This document shows positions 8,765-42,950 of a DNA stretch of 64,000 nt, piece after piece. The stretch is taken from the NCBI GenBank assembly GCA_050575255.1, contig JBNZDD010013731.1, positions 11,965,956 to 12,029,955 of the forward strand, in the 5' to 3' direction. The stretch comes from Harriotta raleighana. Its lineage: Eukaryota. The notes under the pieces are model-generated. The model saw nothing but the letters and a program-made list of their open reading frames with translations, ran no database searches and was not told where the DNA came from. The first letter of the stretch is position 1; every line of letters begins with the position of its first letter. Made by a program: the position numbers and the translations under genes.

Positions 8765-9110
8765 GTGGGTTCTGCTCTCTTTACAGCCTTGATGTTACCG
8801 TGTTCTGTAGTGCTGTGAAGAACGCCATTGGCAGCTGTTTGCATGCCTTTAATGTTTTCATATATGTTACATCTATGTTTAGGATACGACTACTTTTAAA
8901 TCAAAAGAACCAAATCAATTATAGTGTACTCATCAGCACAGGCAAATTGATATTATCTGATATTAGTGTTTTTAAGTCTTGTTTTAGTTTTGTTTTCTCA
9001 GTTATCTATTGATTTGAGATATTCAATATGATTCTTTTTTGTTTATCCTACCCTTTTCCAAATCCTTTTGTTCTCTACACTTTTGCACAAACTTTTTGAT
9101 CCTTACCAAG

Positions 9111-12100
9111 CCAAAAAGTATTAGCATTTAAAGAGAGAGTTAGAATTATACCTGTTGATTCTGGAGTGGGAGAGGAAGAGTGGGATCATAAGTATGACAA
9201 GTTAGGGAAACTGCTCATTGAGAACTTTTTAGTCGAAAGCCAAAGAAGTTGGCAAGAAGAAACTGCAAAGAAGAGCTATGCGATCAGAAAAAGTCAGCAA
9301 TGCAGGGAGCGTGCAGAAAGAGCATCGCGACACTCATTGAGATGTGATCAGTCCTTAACTGGGGAATCGCATGTTCCCAGACACTCTAGTTATCCGGAAG
9401 AATACAATACAATCGATAGGAGGAGGAAAAAGAAATGCAGATACAATAGTTTGGAGGATGGCAAATTGAAAATGCAATATTACCGTTCAAGTAGTCTTGA
9501 TTCAGAGGAAGGCATCCTTAGTGGCCTTCCTGAAATCAAATCTGAAAGTCAGAAATTGAATCAAAGTGACCCTGTACTACACAGGCATAACATCTCCGGA
9601 GTAGATGAGCAATATAACCAGCAACTAAATGCATATAAACATGGATCTATGTTGAAAAATAATGAGTGGAGAGATAATCAGTTGCTTCATAATGAATCTG
9701 ATGATATGATAGATATAGATGAATGCCTAGAAGAAATGTACAATGAGCAGATACTGAAGAAAAGAATGCTAGGGGAAATCTGTGGTGACTATGATGATGA
9801 GCAAGAAGATATATTAATGGGAAAGTCCTGGCGTGAAAGTGCAGATCCTTGCATTAAATATAGGGAACATGATCTTCGTGGAATGCATGGCCCTCAGAAA
9901 AAGTACCAGCTCAGCTATGATCATCATCTTGATGAAGAATCTGAACTCAGAGGAATGTTGCATTCCTCTCAAGGTGATGAAATGAATGAGGAGTATGTTG
10001 ATACAATGGATGAACTTCAATGTTTGGTGGAGTCTGTGTCTGAATACTTGGCTGAGAAAGAAGAAGAAATGAGCAAGTTTGGTTCACTTCCAAAGAGACA
10101 CAACAGGACTTTCCGAAAGTCTCAAGGAGAGATTGAGACCCTGCAGCATTACAACGTTGATGGCAGCGGTGAATGTTTTAAACCAAAAAGACAAGAAGGA
10201 TGCAGGAGACCGAAAGGTTTTGCTATAAATATTGATTGTGATGATAGTGATCAAAAACTAGACCCTATTCCAGACTTAACTGGAGTGAAGAATACCATGC
10301 AGTCTTTATTCAATTCAATAGGTGAAAAAGTAGGAGGAAATAAAAAACAGCCTTCAACCTCTGTGGAAAAAGGGGTTCCCACTTCCCTTGAAAATGAAGA
10401 TGAAAAGAGTAGGGGAGTCCTTGGTCTTGTAAAATTATCTTCTCCAAAGTCAATGCCCAGGAGTTTCACACCACCTTCATCCATGGAAGATAAAACAGAA
10501 ATAACTTTTTCTTCACAGTCTACTGGAACATTACAAGCCGACACCAGCAAGTCAGTTACATCTATTAATTCCGAGAACTCAGAGCAAAAGAAAGCTGGCA
10601 TTAATACCACTTTTACTTATCTTATGCAGGAGGCTCTGCATAATGACTATGACATTGTGAAGAACCAGTTATCATCTTCATCACAGAATACAATCATTGA
10701 TTCAGTCCTGGAGAAATTGAATCCCTTAACATTTTTCACAGAGAAAGATTCTGCTCCGGATTCTTCCAAACCTGCTGTGCAGAACAAAGAACACAAAATT
10801 TCTGAATTTCAGGCCAGCATTTCTGCTAACCTTGATACCCATGGGCATACTTTGAATTCATCTGGTGAAGAAAGAAAAGTTTCACCAAGATTAGAAAAAA
10901 AGCTTGATTCTAATGTTGCTTTGCAAGATGATTGTGATGACACTTTGTTGCAACAGGATAGCAATTTAAGTAGCAAAGAGCAAAAAGGAACTATTTTAGA
11001 CAAACAGTCAGGATATGCAATTGGATTGGACAGCAAATCAGAACCTGTTCAATTTTCACACACTTCAGCACAGGAAAGTAACAATGAGCACGTTGCTAAA
11101 ACCCTGCTGCCTCATCATGTTGGAAGTGTTGAGTTAGCACAAGATGTGAAAGCTTCTGATAAAATGGAATCATCTTTCCAATCAAAGCCTGACAGTGCTG
11201 ACAACTCTGGAATAAATTTTGGATTTTTCAACCCTCTGAAAAAGTCATTCAGCCAAATTATCCATTCTTCATCAGAAGAAGGTGCCTTCAGATTTCCTTA
11301 TTACAAATCTACCGAGGACCTTCGAGATGGGAAAGAAAGAATGAAAGATGATCAAACATTCTCTCTGGTTGGAAAGTTAAAACTTCCCTTCTTTTCATCT
11401 GAAAACATTGCTTCCGAAAAACCAAAAGAAGCAAAATCTGAGGGTGGCCTGTTTTCAGAAATGTTCAAATTTCCTACAGGTGAAAGAACATCTGCAACCA
11501 AAGAAGTGAATGCCAAACAGTCAGACAAAGTAAGAACATCTGGTGAACAACAAAAGGAGGGTAAGCAGACTAGCTTGTTTGGTGTTTTAAGGTTTTCATC
11601 AAGTCCAGAACATGGTACTGAAAAGGAGGGTATCATTGATAAACACGGTACCACTGAAAAAGACAAACAAAATAGTAGCCAGCAAGGTTTTTTCTCGAGC
11701 CTGCTTAAATTTACTTCCAGTGGAAGCCTGTCCACATCTAAAGAAGAATTGAGTGACAAAGAAGATTTAGGTAAAATGGTGAATGCATCAGCATTCCAAA
11801 AAGATCAAAACAAACCAGTACTATTTGTAGATGCAACAAAATCTCCCTCTAGTCAAGGTGTTGTAGAACCAAAACATGTATCGGTAAATGCAAATACAAA
11901 GGCCAGCAGTGTTCCCGAGACACAACAAACCATTCATGGAAACCAAGGATTCCATAAAGGCCTTTTTAAGTTATCTTCAACTGAAGATATATCCTCATTA
12001 AAACAAGAGGTAAGCAACCAAAAGTATCCAGATACAATAGGGAGAGCAGTGCAAGAATGTGATAGAAATAAAAGTTCAACTTTGTCAAATATTTCACTAA

Positions 12101-15100
12101 TTTCATTTCAACAAAATGTTATAGTGCAAAATGAAGAACTGGTAAATAAAAGTGAGGCAGTAAAACCAAACCCGTTACCCGAGAAAGATAAAGAGAACAG
12201 CAACCAGCCAGGATTTTTTTCAGCCTTATTCAATTCAGCAACAAGGAAACCAGAGGAGACGAGTAAGAATGACAGTCCTTTAAGTTTTTTTAAATTCATG
12301 AATAAAAGCGATGAAGCCAGCAAAACAGGAAATGAGAACCAAAGTGAAGGCAATCATTTATCTTCATTTTTCACAAAATCTGTCAATACACCAGAGAACA
12401 AGAATGAAGAAACATCATCCTTCAATTTGTTTAAACATTTTACTTCCAAAACAAAGGACAGTAGTGAACAAACTGAATTGAAGGAGAACCCCAATAAGCA
12501 GACACAATCAATGTGGTCTTCAAAGCAGCCAGAGAGCAGCAATGATAAACTATATGAGAATAAAGCATCTCATATTGTGCAGAATTCAAGTCCAAGTGAT
12601 GTCCCTGGAGTATCGAGAACTTGGCAGGCTCAAGCTTTGACAAAAACCTGTAAAAATATTCCTCAGGAATTTCAAGAAGGGCCCGAGCAAATTCCAATCG
12701 GAACACAAGCATACAAGGCTCCTTGGAATTCTTCATGTAGTGATATGGCTGAATATAATTCATTACCAATAAATAATGCAGCATTGATATATTTATTTCC
12801 ACATTCATTCCAAAGTCACCCAGAATTTATTAGGCCTGAATCGGGATTAAAAACTGAAGCATGCAGTGAAGTTTATTCTCAAGAAGATTCCAATCTGATC
12901 TGGACAGATATTTCTACTGCAGACCGTGATACTTTCCAGGATTCATATGAAGAGTTGAGCAACAGGACAGAAATGGACAATATTATAAATTTGTCGAACA
13001 AGGAGGAGGTCATTAATCCAGACGATGGCAGCTACTTATTTTCCAATAGGACTGAAAACATTATGGAACCTGAGTGTTTGGATTTTAGTGTAGCATCGGG
13101 TGATACCTACAGGTCATTTTCATATGCAAATTCTGCTGAAGAAAGCCTGAGCAAAACCTTAGAGAGATATTGGGATTCGTTAGAACTTAATGGAACTGTT
13201 GACTCATTTCTTGAAATGCCAATGGATCTAAGTTACTCTTCTAGCAATGCAGTTTCTTGGCTTATTCCAAATGAACAAGAATTAGTGACAGAAAAGGAAA
13301 AACAATTTTCTATCAGCAGTTATCAGGAGTATCAAGACTGGCTTGCTTTACTTGAAAACGGTTTATGGTGTCCTTCAGAAGATGGGGAATATGGCTACTA
13401 CATGTACAGTGATGGTGAATATATATATTCCTTGCTCACTGATGCCAATGGCCAATACGTGTATGTTTGGAGACCAGAGACAGATGAAGAACAGGAAGAT
13501 TGGGAGTATTATCAGCAATTGAATGGTGAATGTGATGTAGGACTGGGAGAGGACATGGTTTCTGTATGTGGTTTTAAGGTGCCCATTTCAAATGATTTTG
13601 ATTTGTTCTGGTACAATGAGGAAGAGCAGATTGAATCTGAAATGGACAATGCACCTCTTGATCTTTCTCTGGTTTGGGGAAGGAATGACCGAGCTGTATG
13701 GAAGAATTTAAATACTTTTTCACAACTGTTTGAAGATTCGATAGAATTGAATACGGATGAACCACTTGATTTTTCATCAAAGTACAAAATGTGCAAGCTG
13801 AAAAAACTTAAGATGGATTTTTCTTCTGAAGATCAAATTGAACATTTTCACGGAGAACTTCAGAATATTGCCTTTGATCTGCGAATCGTCCCAGGTAGTC
13901 AGTCGGCTCAGAAGCAGAGTAAAACTAGCACAACACTAGCAAATGAAATCTTAGATTGTGCATCTACAACACCGCAGTCGAAACTTTCATCAGTGGCAAC
14001 CTCATCAGGACTGTTTAGTCTGTTTCGTTCTTCTGTTAAATTGTCAGATCCTTCAACACAGAATACCTCTGAAACCAATCAACCTGAAGAGCACCAACAG
14101 CCTATCAAAAAGATAACATCTTTCTTTTCTTCATTGGGTGATCTTGTTGGAAATCAAAATGCTGAAAGTTCTGTGGTTTCTAGTTCGGCTTTACCAGGCT
14201 TGGCACCAGCCACCCCATCAAAGAGCACATTGGACATGACCAATGACACCATTTCTTTATCAAGAAATAATATGGATCAGACTAAGCCTAATGTTAGGGA
14301 TAGACAGCCTTCAGTTATCTCACAAGATGACAAACCAAGTAATATGTTTGCGTCTGGTTTAAAAAGTTTAAAATCAATATCTAGTAGCTGGAAGAGCACA
14401 ATGAGTGCTTCAGATGATGAACCATCTATTGTTGATCAGAGACACAAAATACAAGATCAGGATTTGGCTAGGTCACCTGCTTTGCACTCTCCTGAAGACT
14501 CAGCTAGAAGTGTAATGCAGCCATCACCTGAGGGGATGTCAAATATAAATCAAAATAAATCTAATGCTAGTGTCAAACCACCTCTAATGTCTTCTCAGCC
14601 TACTGCATTTCAAATACCCACTTCGACGACACACGACTCGTTCTTTAAAAATCCTCTCAAACTTTTTAACCCATCCGAAAATCAGACTCAAGCAAAAAGC
14701 AATGAGGAAACTCGAAGTTCTAGTTTCTTTGACATTTTTAAAAGTGCCAGTGCCAAAGAAGAGCAGAATTCGTCTGGCTTGAATTTTCCGTCGAGAGTAA
14801 CTGAGGCCCATGAAAAGGAGCAGAACAATCTTGGGAAATCTGTTCCTAATGTAGAAAAGCAGCCTTCTGGCATTTCATCCCTCTTTGGCTCAATTGGAGG
14901 ATTCTTCAAAATTGATCCAATTCAACATCCAGAACATGTAATGAATTCAAGTAAGAACGAAAATAAAAGTAAACTACCAATTGCAGCACAAATTGTGCAT
15001 GGTAAAACCAAGCAGAACGAACATGAGAATGCTCTTCTGGCTTGCTTAAGACCCGAGGTGCCATGCTCAAGGTCAAAGAGTTTGCAAAAGCAACGAACAC

Positions 15101-18100
15101 TAAGAGAACCGAATATTGGTTTTGAAACTACTGCAATGAAAATGGTGCCTTCGATGGATGAAGAAAATGATATAACCTCTGTAAATGTGGAACGCACTAG
15201 TGATGAGGCAGAAATAGTCTCTATGTATCAAAATAGATCTGCCTCAAATACTGATGGAGTTGTTATCAATGAATCTACTGTACAGTACCCTGAACACCCG
15301 CCCGGGACTGAAATAAATGCTGCACAAAATATCACCACAACAGAGTTTTCTGATCCCATCATGAAGCAAAGTATTCGAAGGAAATCCACAGTCACAGTTT
15401 GGGATAATCAGTTTAGTTCAGAAAAAGTTAATTCCCAGGTATCCATGAAGGTTCAAGGAAATGGTGAGAATCAAACTGATAGATTTGCTTCTCCATCAGA
15501 GACAGGAAAACAGGAACAAAAACCCAAACAATCTAGTCTCTTTAGTTTACCCTTTGGAGCAGGAGATTGGAAACTTCCAAATGTCTCAAGTCCCAAACAA
15601 CAGGGAACAAACAAAGGCCTATTTTCTTTCTTTAGTGGGTCAGATAATGCAAGTCAGACCCAAACCCCTAGTCGTGATGCATCATTTGCTGGAGCTAGGC
15701 CGACAGTCAGCTCAGAAGGATTTTTCAAATTACCATCATTCTTCTCAACCACTCCTCCAGCTGAGGAGAGAAAACCAAAGGGAAGCACCTCCAGCTTTAG
15801 TTTCTTGAACTTGACATTTCAGGATGAGAAAAGGTCAAAACCAGAGCAAAGGTTTTCAGAACCCACTCAAAATAATGCTGGCTTGTTATCAAGGCAGAAA
15901 GATGTGTTATCTGCTGGCTATTTGAGAGATCCTGATTGTAAAGACTGGAAAGGTGTACCAGAGAGAGAGCAGGTGGACAGAACAACATCAGCCATGCAGC
16001 AAAAGGTTCCTTTAACTTATAACAAAAATGGTTTAGGTGCACCTACTTTGCTGCCAACTTATGAAAATGATGAAGTTAAAATAGATAACACTGTTTGTGA
16101 TAGAGGTACTATTGCTGCTAAAAACTTCATGTATTCATATCCCATGGAGAGTGGAAGTATCCCCTATGTACCATGTCATCCTGATGTTTATAATGTTGAT
16201 ACTGGGGACTATGTTACTGCAGAAAACATTTTGGATGAAAATCTGACAGTAGGTCAAATTGACATTGAAAAGAGCTTGACAGTAGATCACATTGACATTG
16301 ATGAGAGGCTGACAACAGGTCACATTGACATTGATGAGAGTCCTCCAGCAGATTACTTTGACATTGATTACAACACTAAGAATAGTTTGCCTGTGAATGC
16401 TACAGATACAGATGAAGCCTGGACCACAGAAGTTGAAACCTATCTCCCAAATTTGTCAGACGAGACTGATGTAGAAGCCTCTAACCTGGGGATTGAGATG
16501 AGAAATAATTCGGATGAGATTGTTCTGGAAAGAGGAATAGTTTCAGAACCAAAATATTCTCAAGTGGATACGTCCAACAACTTGTTAAATGAAAAGCGGG
16601 AACCTCCAAATACCCCAAATGTTGATATGCTGACTGATTTTAATGCAAGGGAGAAGTTACCTGAAGGTGAAAAGTCTTTAATAGGCAACACAATGGAAGT
16701 GTTTTCAGGCTTTATGACAAAAGTGAAGTTATTTTCTAGCAGTGGAAGTGAATCTATGAAAACCACAACCACCTCATTTCCATCACTCTTTACAAACTCA
16801 AGTTCTCGGCCAAGTGCTCAACCAAGAAGTTCTTTTTTTAACTTGTCACACAATAATAGCCAGATGCCATCTGTAAAACCTGATTTGTTCAGCCTTTTTA
16901 AGGTACCTGCTGAAAAAACTAATCCAGCTGCAAATTTAGAAACCACTATGGTGCAAAACAAAACTGATGCATTTGAAGTTTGTAACAATTCCCAAAGTCT
17001 AGGAGAACCCCTCAAAACAGTCGGCGAAATGCCTATTGATGTTTCTCAGTGTAATATCGCTGGCACTTTATCGGAGCAGGAATCAGAAAATTACATTGAC
17101 AATAATATTCAATGTGACTACGAAAGCACCGATGTCCAAGTCCTTGAAGATGATACGTTCAATACTGAAGATAAATATCAAGTAACGGCCAGCAACACAG
17201 TGGAGTCAGAAGACCCAGATATTTTAGTTGCAGATGAAGGTTTTCTTGTTTCAGATACACAGCAAAGTGAAGAGGTGGAAGATGTTCCTGCAAATGATAG
17301 TATGTCTATTCCTGACACAGCAAGTGGAGATATTTTACAGTTGGGAAGTTACAGTCAAGAATTAGACCACTCGGTAGATGTTAAGTTTGAAGATCTTCCA
17401 AAAGATCAACCCATTTTGCAAATGCATTCCAAGGTTTTGGACGGGCCAGCCTCTTATGGCCTACCATCAAACGAAACTCCACAGAAGGGTGATTATGGGA
17501 CGACAAAATCTGTTTTTGAAATTCCCAGCATTGCTACATCTAAATTCAGTTTTTTGTCTTCTCGAGAAAGTGGCAAACCATTCAGTTTATTTTCACAGCA
17601 ACCATCTCCTTCGAGCGACCCGTCCAGAGAAACTGGTTTATTTTCGAGTTTTCGGAAATTTTCCAAGACATTATTCGATGCAGACAATGGCCAAGCACAG
17701 GATTTCACGCAGAGATCTGTCTTTGGGAAACTGGATCACTTTCCTTGGCAAAAAGAGAGTGCTGCTAAACAAGAGCATGCTGTGGTCACAAAACAACCTG
17801 TAGCAAGAGAAGAAATTGGGAAGAGTGCTCATGACATTCCAGACTTCAGTCACAGTGTAGATACCAAAAGTGAGAGTAGTGCATTAACAGATAAGACCAT
17901 TGTGGGAGAGTCTGAAAAGGTAGGTAATGTTGCAAATCAAAGTGAGAGCAGTTCCCTGAATGATCAAGTTAATCTTATGTCAGGACGTCCAGAGACTACC
18001 GCAACGTCTGCTCTTGAAAGTAGTTCTGAAATAATAGCTTCAGAATTACATACAGCGGAGCTACCAGCAGGAGCTTGTATACACTTGGAGAAGACAACTG

Positions 18101-18203
18101 AGACTGAAACCGATGTTTCCATTGAGACCTACTTATCTCCAGAGCTCCACCAGGCATCACCGCAGAGAGCTTTCAAGAGTTCGGACCTTTTGAATACGAA
18201 AAG
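9111..18203 (+). CDS. unc13b: unc13b giant 9093-nt cassette exon (3031 codons, largely low-complexity/disordered), phase 2-2; reads on to TGA at 18225 if unspliced
   Basis: Uninterrupted ORF 9166-18225 extends upstream in frame to an acceptor CCTTACCAAG| after a long pyrimidine tract. Candidate donor AAG|GCCAGT at 18203/18204 gives phase 2, matching exon 18981. Coding status is near certain; the 3' boundary is inferred. Confidence 0.85.
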
Positions 18204-18980
18204 GCCAGTCTTAGCTTACGCATGATAAATGGCACCAGTAGGTTGACCATTTATAATGCACTTAAAAGTAGGCAGATTGAAGTAGTTTGGTGTTTTTATT
18301 TTAAATCTTTCTCCTTGCATTTTAATTGTTTGTATGTCATTCCTGTTAAAATATCTACTTTTTCTTAAGTTACGCCATAACATTATGGCAGTCCTCTGAC
18401 TCTGTTTATTACCTATAATTTGAAATTACTATTTAATGCAACTTAAAAAGTCTTACATACAAAATGTGCAGGTCATTTACAATGTGCTTTGTGGAAGTTT
18501 TAGCTGTAGTTTGCTTTCTGTGAAGGTGACCATGTGGCAGTATTGTCATTAGTGTGCTAAGTGTAGTAGCACCTGCTGCTTTTGGTGCTGTGTTTTGTCA
18601 CCGTTTCTTAATATATGCCACGAAATGCATACTCTGAAGTATGATCATTAAAGCAATCAAATCCAAGGAATTAACTAAGGTTTATGTGTGAATGCATCGC
18701 AGTCTACATTATGAACGAACCAGGAATTCTTGAATCAAACCTAAAATGTACTTGTACAAAATTTTTCTAATGGTTAAACAATTAATGGTTTTTGGAACTT
18801 GTATAAGAAAATGATTTGGAATGGTTTAGAGTGAAAATTGCTGTCTCATACATTGGTTGCAAAATATCACATTAAAATACTGCTAATCTACCAATTATTA
18901 ATGGCTGCTATGCACTGTATATGTAAGCTTTGGTGCAACAGCTTTGAGTTAGTAGCTAAACTTTTTGATTTTGTCTACAG

Positions 18981-29359: not shown

Positions 29360-31895
29360 ATGATGTTTTCTAGAAAAGAGATGTTCAATTTAGAAAGGAA
29401 AAAGAGCATAACTATTGCTTTTAAATTCAAAGCATCAAAGACGAAAACCCTGAAGAAAAACAAACTTCCAAAGTCCAACATTTCACTGAGTTTGAAGCAT
29501 AAAATGCAGAGAGTATTACGATATGGTAGAGATTTTAACTTGTCTAGATTCAGAGACTGCCATCCTTCTGTTGAAATTGCAACTGATATGTTTGTGTGTG
29601 GCCTCAAATCAGAGAATCCAAAGATTACGGATTCCAGCAGTGGAAGAATAGGCTCCAACTCATCTACAAACAAAGAAGTTAATTTGCCAGCAACAATATG
29701 TAGCATGGAGGAACAAATAATAAATGATTGTGCACAAGTCCAAGATACAATTGAACAAAATAGGACTCGTTTTCCAAACAGAGAACCTCTGGACAACACT
29801 CCATTGCTTCATGGTTTGCAAACACTTAACAACAAAGAAATATTCAATGAATTAAGCAGTCAAGATCTGCTCATTGATGTACCTGGTGTAAATGCTGATC
29901 AAACTGTCAGTGCTTACAGCTTATGCTTAGGTAATAAGTACTTCCTAAACCAGTCAGAGGATAATGTTGAATGTATACTTAAAGAGTTACAAGGAATTAA
30001 TAAATTACAAGAAGGAATTATAGACTTACGAACCCAATTGTCTTCGTTGAAGGGTTCAATGGATGAAGTGTCCATTTGTGTAGATGCTTTGTTTAATGAA
30101 ATAAAGTGGTTGAGGAATACATTTCAGTCAAATGACTTAAATACTGTGCACAATTTGGATGAAGTAATGGACCCACAAGAAGATGTAATGCTATGCTTTT
30201 ACAATGTTCCTGAAGAATTCAATGAAAATCTAGAAAATATAATTTACAATCTTTTATCTAAGGATGATTGTGTTGATGACATTAAACACCTGTTCCATAT
30301 CAAGGAAATGTATCGATCAGATTTGATGAGGAACATTCAAGTTGGAGAACCGAGGCCCATTATAGCAATGTGTATCAGTCCTGAACACTGGGATCTCTTC
30401 TCCACCAAATGTTACCAGTTACAGAGCATGGGGATTGACGTTTCCATCTACATATCCTCAACAAGACATAAGCATAATTTGCTGCCTTCAGTGAATGCTG
30501 CGGTAGAGATGGGTTTGAATGAACACAAAAGGAAAACCTTCAAGCTTTGTGATAAGGAACCTGAAGGCACACTTAGTGGAATATTCAGTGGCTTAGAAGC
30601 TGGATCAGCTTTGTTACTCAGTAAGATTGATGAATTTGCCAAGACAGAAAGTCAAATTGATAAAGAAAAATGCTACTTTTGCAATCCAGTTGAAGTATAT
30701 GGTTTGTCACCGAAAACAAAAGATGAGTTTTCTATTGAGTGTAAGACTGACCAGAAGCTGAATGCTGATAGTTTGCTCATGGAAGAGTCTTCAGAGGTTC
30801 CTGAATATTTTTGGGATTTTGCAGAATATTGTGAGTTATCCTCAGAAGATTTGACTGTGCTGGAGCAAACTAAGGACCTGACTCGTGTGGAGGAAGATGA
30901 TTTAATGTTCCAGGAAGAAAAATATCATATTGAAATAACTCCCCCAAATCAGCTGGTGGCATCCTGCAGTGAAACATGTCAAATATCTACCAGTCAGATA
31001 ACACTATTGCATAATCATGAAGTGGAGAACTATATATCATCTGTGCAAAATGATTTTTATATAAATTTATCAGACGATGTGTATGACCGAGATTACGACA
31101 ATAATATACCTTTGCCTTGCAGTAAAGCTGAATGTTTGCTGAAAAGCACAGGTGCTGAAAAATATAGAAATTGCCATTGTAAATGTGACTATCAGGAATG
31201 GGGTCATTTTGTGGAGCAAGAAATAGATGGAAATCCCAAGAAGGAAAGCGTTCCTTCAGCGGATCTGAGGTCCAGCTTGAAAAGATTGGGAGAAAGGCTT
31301 CTACATTTGAAATCTGTTCTGAAGGCAGTATTTATGAGTTTAGAGAGTAAGAGCTCACAGAATCCTACAGATTCACTGTATGTTGATGCCAAAAAGTTTC
31401 AGAGCAGGAATCCAAAAAAGAACTGTTCGTTATATAAAAAGGATGATTTGAGGAAAGTAAATGAAGGCAACAGTGGAAATCAACATGAGGATTTTGCAAA
31501 AGAAGCTTGTGGCACATTAGTAGAGAATCTCACTGCACATCCACAGCCACCTTCAGCAAAAGGTTCATCCACTTGTTATCAACCTTCAGCACTCACCAGT
31601 ACACCTTGGAGGCTACTGCTTTACAAAGCTAAAGAGGCTTTTTCAGATCAAGGGCTACTTTCTTCTTGTGAAAGAGTCAAAATAAATGTCAACCATGACA
31701 AAAATAGTTTCTTAGATAGTTCCTCTAAATGCAGAGCCAGTGCTCCACAGACTGTGTCCGGAGATACTGAATATTTAAGCAAACGCATGACTCATTTTAG
31801 AAATGTTCTTGAAGAAAGACAACAAAGAACCTTAAAAGGCATAGAACATCATGACCACGTGATATCAGCTGATGAACAGGAAGCAAGAGTACAAG
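29360..31895 (+). CDS. unc13b: Alternative N-terminal coding exon of the bMunc13-2-type isoform (about 845 codons); reads on to TAA at 31984 if unspliced
   Basis: 874-aa ORF between the CaM exon and the common exons, where the brain-type N-terminus sits in mammals. Has a coiled coil ILKELQGI...EIKWLR and KRMTHFRNVLEERQQR, resembling the bMunc13-2 CaM site FKNVLREKR. Donor CAAG|GTATAT (phase 1); possible upstream acceptor TTTCTGTAG| at 29134. The start ATG is uncertain. Confidence 0.85.
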
Positions 31896-32891
31896 GTATA
31901 TCAGATACACCCATGAAACAATCTAGAAATGACATTACCCTCCATTACTGCGTGTCCTTTCCCTCCAAAAAGTCATTTATTTAATTGCCTGCTTGAATTT
32001 TGTGTTTGTACAAATAGTGGTTTTGTGAATTTGTGAATCTTTAAGATAATGATATTTGCAGGACAACATTTTAATCATTAACATACGGATATTAATAACA
32101 AAATTGTATTGAAGCACTGCTCCTCTTTTGCCAATAATTGTTCAGTCTGAATGAATAAAATAAATGATTGTATCTGAGATGCATCTGAATGCAAGAACCT
32201 GTCTCACTAAGTACATTATAATGATATTTTTCTTATTAATGACTTTTCCAATATGTTTCCATTATTCACAATGTAATGTTTTGTTGCTGAACAAAATGGA
32301 TATAATCTGGACTAATCACTTCTGAGCTATCTTCTAAATATCTAAAGGCTCAGAAACGTAGTCAATAATGAAATTTTTACTTTTAACTTTTAACATCCAA
32401 TTCCCATTCAAGTTCATTTTGTTTCTGCAATTGTCAGCAGTAACAAATATTAATGACAGCATTTTTTTCTCAAAATTCTTCTTGGGCTTTTTGACAACAA
32501 CAACAAAATTGCATTTATAGAGCATCTTTCAGGTCGTGTGGATGTCCCAAGGGCTTGACATCAAACTACACGATCTGAATCAAGATATCTTCAAAATATT
32601 GAAGAACATGTAATAAACCTCCCAGAGAAGAGTTATATTTTGTGTTATTAAGTAAATATTCCAACTGAAGTTCTTCAGTGGATTATTTATGAAGCACTGA
32701 GTAGTTTTTCATCTTTGATCTTTGCCCAAGTACCCTAGGCCGAGAACTGTGATGGCAATGCTTCTCCCAGGTCTGAGTGAGGCTCCATGTTACAAGGTGT
32801 GCTTCTTAGGAACCATATGACTTCTATTCTGTGCTTTCTTGTGATACCACAAATACGATTAGTCACTGGCTTGGGCATTAAATAAATAACT

Positions 32892-33172
32892 AATAATTAA
32901 TCCTTGTATTTGATATAGTGTTTTTCACGTCTTCTAGACGTCTCAAAGAGCTTCGCCAAATATACTGTAAAGTGAATTGACTGCCACTGTAAAGTGAATT
33001 AACTGTGAAATGTGGCATCCAATTGTGCACAGCAGTGTCCCACAAACAATCATGAACTGAAATGGCCAATTTTTTTTTGAAGGAATAAGGAAACTTGCCC
33101 ATGGCTTTGCCCTGCCAAGAATTGAACCCAGGACTCTTGCTTGCAAGGCGAGTGCATTAACCGCTGAGTTCC
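32892..33172 (-). mobile_element. SINE family A
   Basis: Reverse-complement match, with a small internal duplication of ACTGTAAAGTGAATT. Confidence 0.88.
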
Positions 33173-34340
33173 ATGATTAACAATGCAAATGCCATCCTGT
33201 CATTCCGTGACATACACTTGGAGTTACAGTGTGCTATTCTTAAATTTTTAAATTGCTAGAATCTTGATAATTAAATAAGAACATAGAATAAACATAGATA
33301 CTTGAATAGTGATCTCTGCTTTTTAATGAATTGTATGCAGCTTTCACTAATTCTGCAGTATATAACTGGTGCATTATAGTGTATTTGTAAACTTGCTGGT
33401 CATAAATGGAGCTGAAACAGAATTGGCGGAAGGAGTATGATCTATATGAGACTTCACTGGGCTGTGTTGTAGCCTTGCTTTGTTACAAAATAAATCAAAA
33501 TAAATTGTAAGGCACAATGTAATTAAGGATTTTTTTAAAATGTAGGATTCATCTTCAAGTTGAAACATAAGATTAGAGTCAGACTATTGCAGCTATTGTT
33601 TTTGCCACTGTATGAAAACATAGAAGGTATTTGCTCGGTATAGATGCAGTGCTCCCTGTCCCTACAAATAACTGGGAAATGGCCTCTGGGTTTTCAGTTG
33701 CCTCATGCTTATAATACATTTCTATGTGAGACAACATTGACCTCAAAGTCCTTCATGTATTATCCGATTAAAACCTACTAATTGCTTGGTTTGAAATTCA
33801 TTTTGATGAGCAATTCTATGGCAGTGAAGCAGTGTTCTTTTGGCATTTATTTACATATTACTGTAATTGGAAAAGATGTCCAGTTTATAAAGTTTGTTGA
33901 AATATCATCTTTTGTTTCGTGGAGCTAAAATGTCATTGCAACATTTGTTTTATATATTTGAAGCAAAACAAAACTAATTAATGGTGTGTCGAATAAAGAA
34001 ATGAGTGTGTGTTAATATGTTTGAAACTGAAACATGGCTACCCGATTTCAGTGTGGAAAATCTGATTAACTTTTCTCATGGATATCAGATCTAATTAACT
34101 GTTCAGAAGAATGGAAGTGGCAGTCAACATAATTGAGGCACTTATTAATAATCTTGGAAAATGGGTTGGATTAGAACATTCATCCATCCACCTGCTGGGA
34201 GGAAGGAGTAGAATAAAATGGTTTTAAAAAGGGAAGCAATGAAAATATTGCAGAATACTTGGAATATTCCAATAATAATGTGTAATACAAGGAAGAGATT
34301 ATCTGCACTCATAATCTTTTCCCTTGTTTTCTCTTTTCAG

Positions 34341-35939: not shown

Positions 35940-35983
35940 GCTGGGGGAGATGATCCATCAAAACCGCCTTGGTTTAAAGGAGG
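35940..35983 (+). CDS. unc13b: unc13b 44-nt exon AGGDDPSKPPWFKG(G), phase 0-2
   Basis: CACTAG| and GG|GTAAGT; corresponds to IPDDGDPSLPQWLPEG of Munc13-2; bridges the CaM exon (phase 0) to exon 38120 (phase 2). Confidence 0.9.

Positions 35984-42449: not shown

Positions 42450-42950
<501 letters not shown>

Follow-up and report, generated by a model that had tools for sequence, protein, structure and literature searches.

The b-type exon of UNC13B and the module within it

The window analysed here, a stretch of 64,000 nucleotides (64 kb), carries exons of UNC13B, a gene for synaptic vesicle priming, on the + strand. The features considered in this report are given below, with coordinates as positions in the window.

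29360..31984, + strand: b-type (bMunc13-2) first coding exon of UNC13B, as assigned from sequence; an 874-aa ORF with 73-78% identity to Callorhinchus milii b-type models
29966..30121, + strand: coiled coil, aa 203-254, probably ORF1p-derived; it is the orthologue of the motif by which rodent bMunc13-2 binds ELKS1
30122..30181, + strand: variable linker, aa 255-274, positioned where the coiled coil of ORF1p would have its C-terminal part; pLDDT <50
30182..30454, + strand: ORF1p-type RRM, aa 275-365, with E285, E289, R319 and R332 matching the L1 salt bridges and no CTD after it; 91% identity to C. milii
31766..31837, + strand: likely Ca2+/calmodulin-binding site of the bMunc13-2 type, from a visual match to a segment printed in PMC7017353
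35940..35983, + strand: first small exon common to the ub isoform, with a phase-0 acceptor
42516..42743, + strand: C1-domain exon of the UNC13B core, which fixes the gene identity

A preliminary description of this DNA had placed a coiled coil and an ORF1p-like RRM inside the b-type Munc13-2 exon, and this arrangement was confirmed. All of the peptides that it quoted lie in one frame of an uninterrupted ORF (874 aa), to which the C. milii UNC13B b-type models are 73-78% identical over approximately 750-780 aa. The exon lies downstream of ub-type exons (5683, 18979 and 21549) and upstream of the shared exons (35940 and 38119) and the C1/C2B exons. A motif similar to the candidate calmodulin site is found in B orthologues. 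On the basis of the identity to C. milii, the exon order and the calmodulin-site-like end, we assign the 874-aa exon as the bMunc13-2 orthologue.

The shared exon at 35940 requires a phase-0 donor, whereas the GT that looks best within the ORF (31896) is in phase 1. This GT would fit an AG located 10 bases inside the shared exon, and no good phase-0 donor was seen at the end of the b exon (31780-31990). A search for a bridging small exon between 31900 and 35930 gave two candidates, neither of them convincing. The annotated gene models of C. milii, anole and horse join the b exon to the core. Often the annotation does not connect the b exon to UNC13B, a possible reason for its having escaped screens; emu has two 826-aa copies of it (P0138 and P0282), each listed as an uncharacterised gene of its own and located on a different contig. 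The window also contains a 3041-aa uninterrupted open frame (9100-18225, + strand) between ub-type UNC13B exons. This frame, a giant alternative exon in appearance, has no Pfam domain and is missing from the six C. milii isoforms that were mapped or listed.

The module, coiled coil plus RRM, comprises residues 203-365 of the 874 aa and is 85% identical to C. milii UNC13B, which makes a chimaera-like fish the likely source of the DNA. Its coiled coil consists of six regular 3-4 heptads, with I213, I220, L227, M234, V241 and I248 at the a positions and L216, L223, L230, V237, L244 and L251 at the d positions, while the linker of 20 residues (aa 255-274) is poorly conserved among B orthologues. 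No Pfam domain scored above cut-off in the rest of the ORF. A motif pattern of the ORF1p type, composed after the sequence had been seen, had a single match across all six frames of the window (at 30191) and none in 20,000 shuffles of the ORF. The match to a profile of stand-alone relatives (described below) ends at position 194 of 288, whereas that of human L1 continues to 232. Judged from these alignments, the CTD is absent from the b-exon module, and the ORF1p match ends with the RRM. The motif GIDV and the helix before it had been described as a helical C-terminal part. This candidate for a C-terminal domain was rejected, as the two elements correspond to strand 4 and helix 2 of the RRM.

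Homology to type II LINE ORF1p

ORF1p is the protein with which LINE retrotransposons package their RNA. The direct comparison with Transposase_22 and ORF1p, recommended in the preliminary description, failed at the level of the single sequence: the b exon alone matched nothing in Pfam, Transposase_22 included, or in the PDB. A search for near-length homologues likewise returned 0 of 145 candidates. A profile of eight UNC13B sequences (B-only) reached an L1 RRM structure at an E value of only 0.051 (rank 2). Transposase_22 detected the UNC13C paralogue at E 7e-4 (20.2 bits, under the gathering cut-off of 22.4); it matched 4 of 13 UNC13C proteins, all below the cut-off, and 0 of 1 UNC13B. The link to ORF1p has to be made through UNC13C or through stand-alone relatives.

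A profile built from five UNC13B and UNC13C sequences (B+C) placed L1 ORF1p at all of the top four positions in the PDB (E 1.5e-6 to 3.8e-4). When the profile was restricted to the RRM, the same four came out on top (best E 2.4e-5), and the next match had an E value of 0.74. When the library was searched with the B+C profile, 906 proteins matched at E <=0.001, and the best 150 of these comprised 45 UNC13-type proteins, 103 stand-alone coiled-coil/RRM (ORF1-like) proteins and 2 unrelated coiled coils, which were dropped. Sixty-two of the 103 ORF1-like proteins were aligned into a stand-alone profile. This profile matched human L1 ORF1p at E 3.3e-21, with the CTD included; for its match to the B-only profile the probability was 99.4% (E 5e-21). 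With it the b-exon module scored 61.4 bits and the RRM alone 46.4 bits, while the highest score among 2000 shuffles was 4.4. These scores are partly circular in that the stand-alone set was chosen with a profile containing the studied b-exon sequence. Two B sequences of mammalian type from outside the seed, horse and P0140, scored 54-64 bits with it. In the other direction, the B-only RRM profile picked up a stand-alone relative (E 1.6e-8 when scaled to 1.84 billion proteins); the only match of this relative in the present genome was UNC13C (E 2.5e-17). Transposase_22 recognised 12 of the 62 stand-alone relatives at E <=0.05, indicating that the Pfam model is narrow.

The salt-bridge residues of the L1 protein were also compared. 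Salt bridges join E165 to R215 and E169 to R202 in L1 ORF1p (PMC6428221), and by alignment these positions map to E285 (E165), E289 (E169), R319 (R202) and R332 (R215) of the b exon. All four residues are invariant, at the sequence level, in 8 of 8 UNC13B and 120 of 120 UNC13C sequences, and the two arginines are spaced 13 residues apart, as they are in L1. A 5-residue insertion that human L1 carries before strand 4 is absent from both the b-exon module and the stand-alone relatives.

The predicted structure was less specific. An RRM-type fold was predicted for aa 275-365, and a Foldseek search with the whole module put ORF1p at ranks 2, 3 and 5-7, its trimers being the best natural matches. 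However, no match reached E <0.001, and with the RRM alone ORF1p came 42nd among matches that were generically ferredoxin-like. ORF1p was absent among the 50 matches listed by a VIA fold search (best Z 7.7), and a viral fold library gave no match at E <0.001. The structural evidence backs the fold class, not the family. Blank single-sequence searches and generic fold matches are what would be expected if a common type of coiled coil simply happened to stand beside a common ferredoxin-like fold. This explanation is very improbable, given that the RRM-only profile scores far above its controls, that four signature residues are in register with the 13-residue arginine spacing of L1, and that the B-only and stand-alone profiles match each other, the shuffle control is low and the B-only RRM profile extends to a stand-alone relative. 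The ORF1p ancestry put forward earlier is borne out through the B+C, RRM-only and stand-alone profiles; we consider the b-exon module to be a truncated homologue of type II LINE ORF1p, a relationship that is firm through profiles.

Whether the immediate donor was a LINE is a separate matter. The module might have come from a different carrier of the same protein family, such as a host gene, a viral or mobile gene of the baculovirus FP type, or a gene of the NADAR-fused kind, in which case it would be ORF1p-like without being a domesticated retrotransposon. Four of the 62 relatives match the baculovirus FP family, against only 12 that match Transposase_22; Baculo_FP_2nd clusters are present among atlas leads (0.87-0.89, leads only); NADAR was found in 5 of 40 scanned matches, a set that included three UNC13B-type proteins; and no donor-like copy was found in this genome. 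On the other hand, type II ORF1 occurs in the L1, CR1, L2 and R1 clades (PMC4120745), the UNC13C match reported by Kitao et al. was to a Dfam LINE ORF1 (PMC12129022), and in both paralogues the frame that surrounds the module is long and without interruption, as retroposition predicts. We regard a non-LINE donor as quite unlikely. The features of an intact LINE, a downstream ORF2 and many genomic copies, were not found: the genome holds only two module loci, and outside the module no part of the ORF carries a Pfam domain above cut-off. A Transposase_22 search of the same genome gave no match, and its control was likewise silent. No DNA context for the stand-alone relative was found among prokaryote or viral contigs.

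The five NADAR-bearing proteins (P0167, P0191, P0201, P0202 and P0207) are stand-alone ORF1p-like proteins with NADAR at the C-terminus, and several more look alike by eye. In these proteins an ORF1-type module is thus combined with an ADP-ribose-processing enzyme.

Paralogues, age and selection

Both of the candidate module loci in this genome proved to belong to UNC13 genes, namely the UNC13B locus and a second locus (G000:C13718), which is UNC13C. The UNC13C module is 35% identical to the b-exon module over its whole length (E 6.5e-25) and occupies the same place in the gene. The UNC13C RRM alone found the b-exon RRM at E 3.1e-11, which shows that homology extends past the coiled coil. The related coil that the preliminary description placed in Munc13-3 is present, and the homology there covers the RRM as well. 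A metagenome scan returned one UNC13C locus.

No C2A exon was found in the 33 kb upstream of the UNC13C module exon. At a third locus (G000:C13251), which we read as UNC13A, C2A exons are present and no module was found within 90 kb (14,296 bases of which are N, none of them in the expected b-exon interval). At this locus one core exon was matched three times and another twice (G000:C13251:50961-52030 and 32618-33838), either as mutually exclusive exons or by assembly duplication. Core identity over 441 sites was 0.92 between A and B, 0.86 between B and C and 0.84 between A and C; with another query (479 sites) the values were 0.88, 0.84 and 0.83, respectively. As this comparison has no outgroup, it gives only a hint that A and B may be sisters and that the b-type module exon may have been lost from A.

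In a FastTree phylogeny of the coiled coil plus RRM (165 columns; 8 B, 8 C and the 63 of 103 stand-alone proteins that were long enough), B and C formed one clade against the stand-alone proteins with SH support of 1.0. The same clade received weak support (0.75) on the 89 RRM columns only. The motif ELxG[IL], common to B and C, was found in 0 of 99 stand-alone proteins. The single clade suggests one capture that preceded the B/C duplication, and two independent captures were rejected on the same clade support and motif. UNC13B b exons with the full module occur in basking shark, emu, anole and horse, and UNC13C has it from chimaera to marsupial. This makes the capture older than the B/C duplication and older than the divergence of cartilaginous from bony fishes. 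It is therefore likely, from these sequences, that the capture occurred before jawed vertebrates diversified, and the B+C clade agrees with the great age that had been proposed. A recent insertion was rejected, the module being single-copy and conserved to mammals.

The survey of UNC13B and UNC13C exons that had been suggested found the module in both, and the RRM is under purifying selection. Relative to run X5, synonymous differences outnumber non-synonymous ones in the RRM by 6 to 2 (pN/pS 0.08); the numbers of non-synonymous and synonymous differences are 3 and 2 for the coiled coil, 5 and 0 for the linker, and 37 and 11 for the flanks (pN/pS 0.86). These counts are small; they cover 40 of the 177 rows and 33 of the 36 letters, up to position 30826. 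Coil plus RRM differed from the flanks at p 0.015 (Fisher), and at p 0.13 when the linker was included. The RRM is 91% identical to that of C. milii, as compared to 73-78% elsewhere in the exon. The exon thus combines an intact frame and an orthologous position across distant species with purifying selection, as a domesticated exon would. Among 40 B-type matches, the RRM is complete in 6 and partial in 1, and 33 (such as P0144, P0145 and P0151) have the coiled coil only, so that the coil is kept in 40 of 40; the three coil-only proteins that were looked up are all from ray-finned fishes. Internal deletions of the RRM were also seen in P0135 (UNC13C-type) and P0152 (B-type).

Function and comparison with known systems

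In rodents, residues 145-187 of bMunc13-2 bind the C-terminus of ELKS1 and target the isoform to active zones, and Munc13-3 does not bind ELKS1 (PMC5379939). The horse coiled coil begins at approximately residue 141, close to this region, and the coil at aa 203-254 is the orthologue of the rodent ELKS1-binding coil. In this fish, too, the coiled coil is probably the working part of the module and would dock the b isoform on ELKS at the active zone. The RRM may have been retained as a folded protein-contact or spacer domain that does not bind RNA and would be dispensable in ray-finned fishes.

The possibility of RNA binding, raised in the preliminary description, was not supported. The b-exon RRM is acidic (net charge -7 to -8), as compared to a median of +4 in stand-alone relatives and 0 to +4 in mammalian UNC13B and UNC13C. 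With no CTD, this charge and 33 of 40 B-type proteins reduced to the coil, RNA binding by the b-exon RRM appears unlikely. A reading in which the module is not only derived from ORF1p but still acts like it, trimerising Munc13 and binding RNA, would accommodate the six regular heptads, the purifying selection on an RRM that keeps both salt bridges, the neutral to mildly basic RRMs of UNC13C and mammalian UNC13B, and the good conservation of the coil-to-RRM segment in UNC13C (68-96%). We nevertheless hold it to be unlikely.

Our preferred reading, to which we assign a probability of roughly three in four, is that the b exon contains a truncated type II ORF1 homologue (aa 203-365, without the CTD) that was probably captured once, from a mobile LINE retrotransposon, before UNC13B and UNC13C were duplicated, and whose coil probably docks the isoform on ELKS as in rodents. 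More tentatively, and with slightly less than even confidence, the brain-specific N-termini of Munc13-2 and Munc13-3 could go back to a single LINE ORF1 that was acquired before UNC13 was duplicated in vertebrates, which would be the oldest vertebrate LINE-protein domestication; the coil would have become a RIM-independent, ELKS-dependent anchor to the active zone, and the RRM, most intact in Munc13-3, would oligomerise Munc13 or recruit a partner. Such a history would explain where these N-termini, described as novel and unrelated in the synapse literature, came from. It would also connect a presynaptic interaction that has been mapped with a retrotransposon protein, and it points to a domain in bMunc13-2 and Munc13-3 that is folded and under selection.

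To our knowledge, few domestications of LINE proteins have been described. Our literature search, which left subscription journals mostly uncovered, found no paper on the origin of the UNC13B module, its link to ELKS1 or its age. Kitao et al. (2025; PMC12129022) noted, as an aside in the Methods and Fig. S8 and without analysis in the sections consulted, that the canonical UNC13C exon is L1 ORF1p-like. UNC13B has no mention in the main text of that paper or of its preprint. Thus the likeness of the UNC13C exon to L1 ORF1p was known, and the UNC13B case, the ELKS1 link and the age are apparently new. The rodent ELKS1 study (PMC5379939) called the B and C N-termini unrelated save for a short coil and, in the part available, gave no origin for them, whereas here homology reaches through the RRM.

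The closest known counterpart is the UNC13C (Munc13-3) exon, with the same module in the same clade; it differs in its clearer motifs, its basic RRM, its status as a canonical exon and its lack of ELKS1 binding. Human LINE-1 ORF1p (2yko, 2ykp, 2w7a and 2ldy; Transposase_22) shares the order of coiled coil and RRM and has the salt-bridge residues in register. In contrast to it, the b-exon module has no CTD, has an acidic RRM, is without the 5-residue insertion and sits in a host exon. Lyosin (MYL4 exon L) and L1TD1 are, like the UNC13B module, ORF1-derived coding sequences under selection, and Lyosin is also without a CTD and lost in some lineages (PMC12129022). Unlike either, the UNC13B module has an experimentally mapped partner (ELKS1, in rodents). 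The UNC13B/C module, present from cartilaginous fishes to mammals and in two paralogues, would also be the older domestication, as compared to Lyosin (>280 My) and L1TD1 (eutherians).
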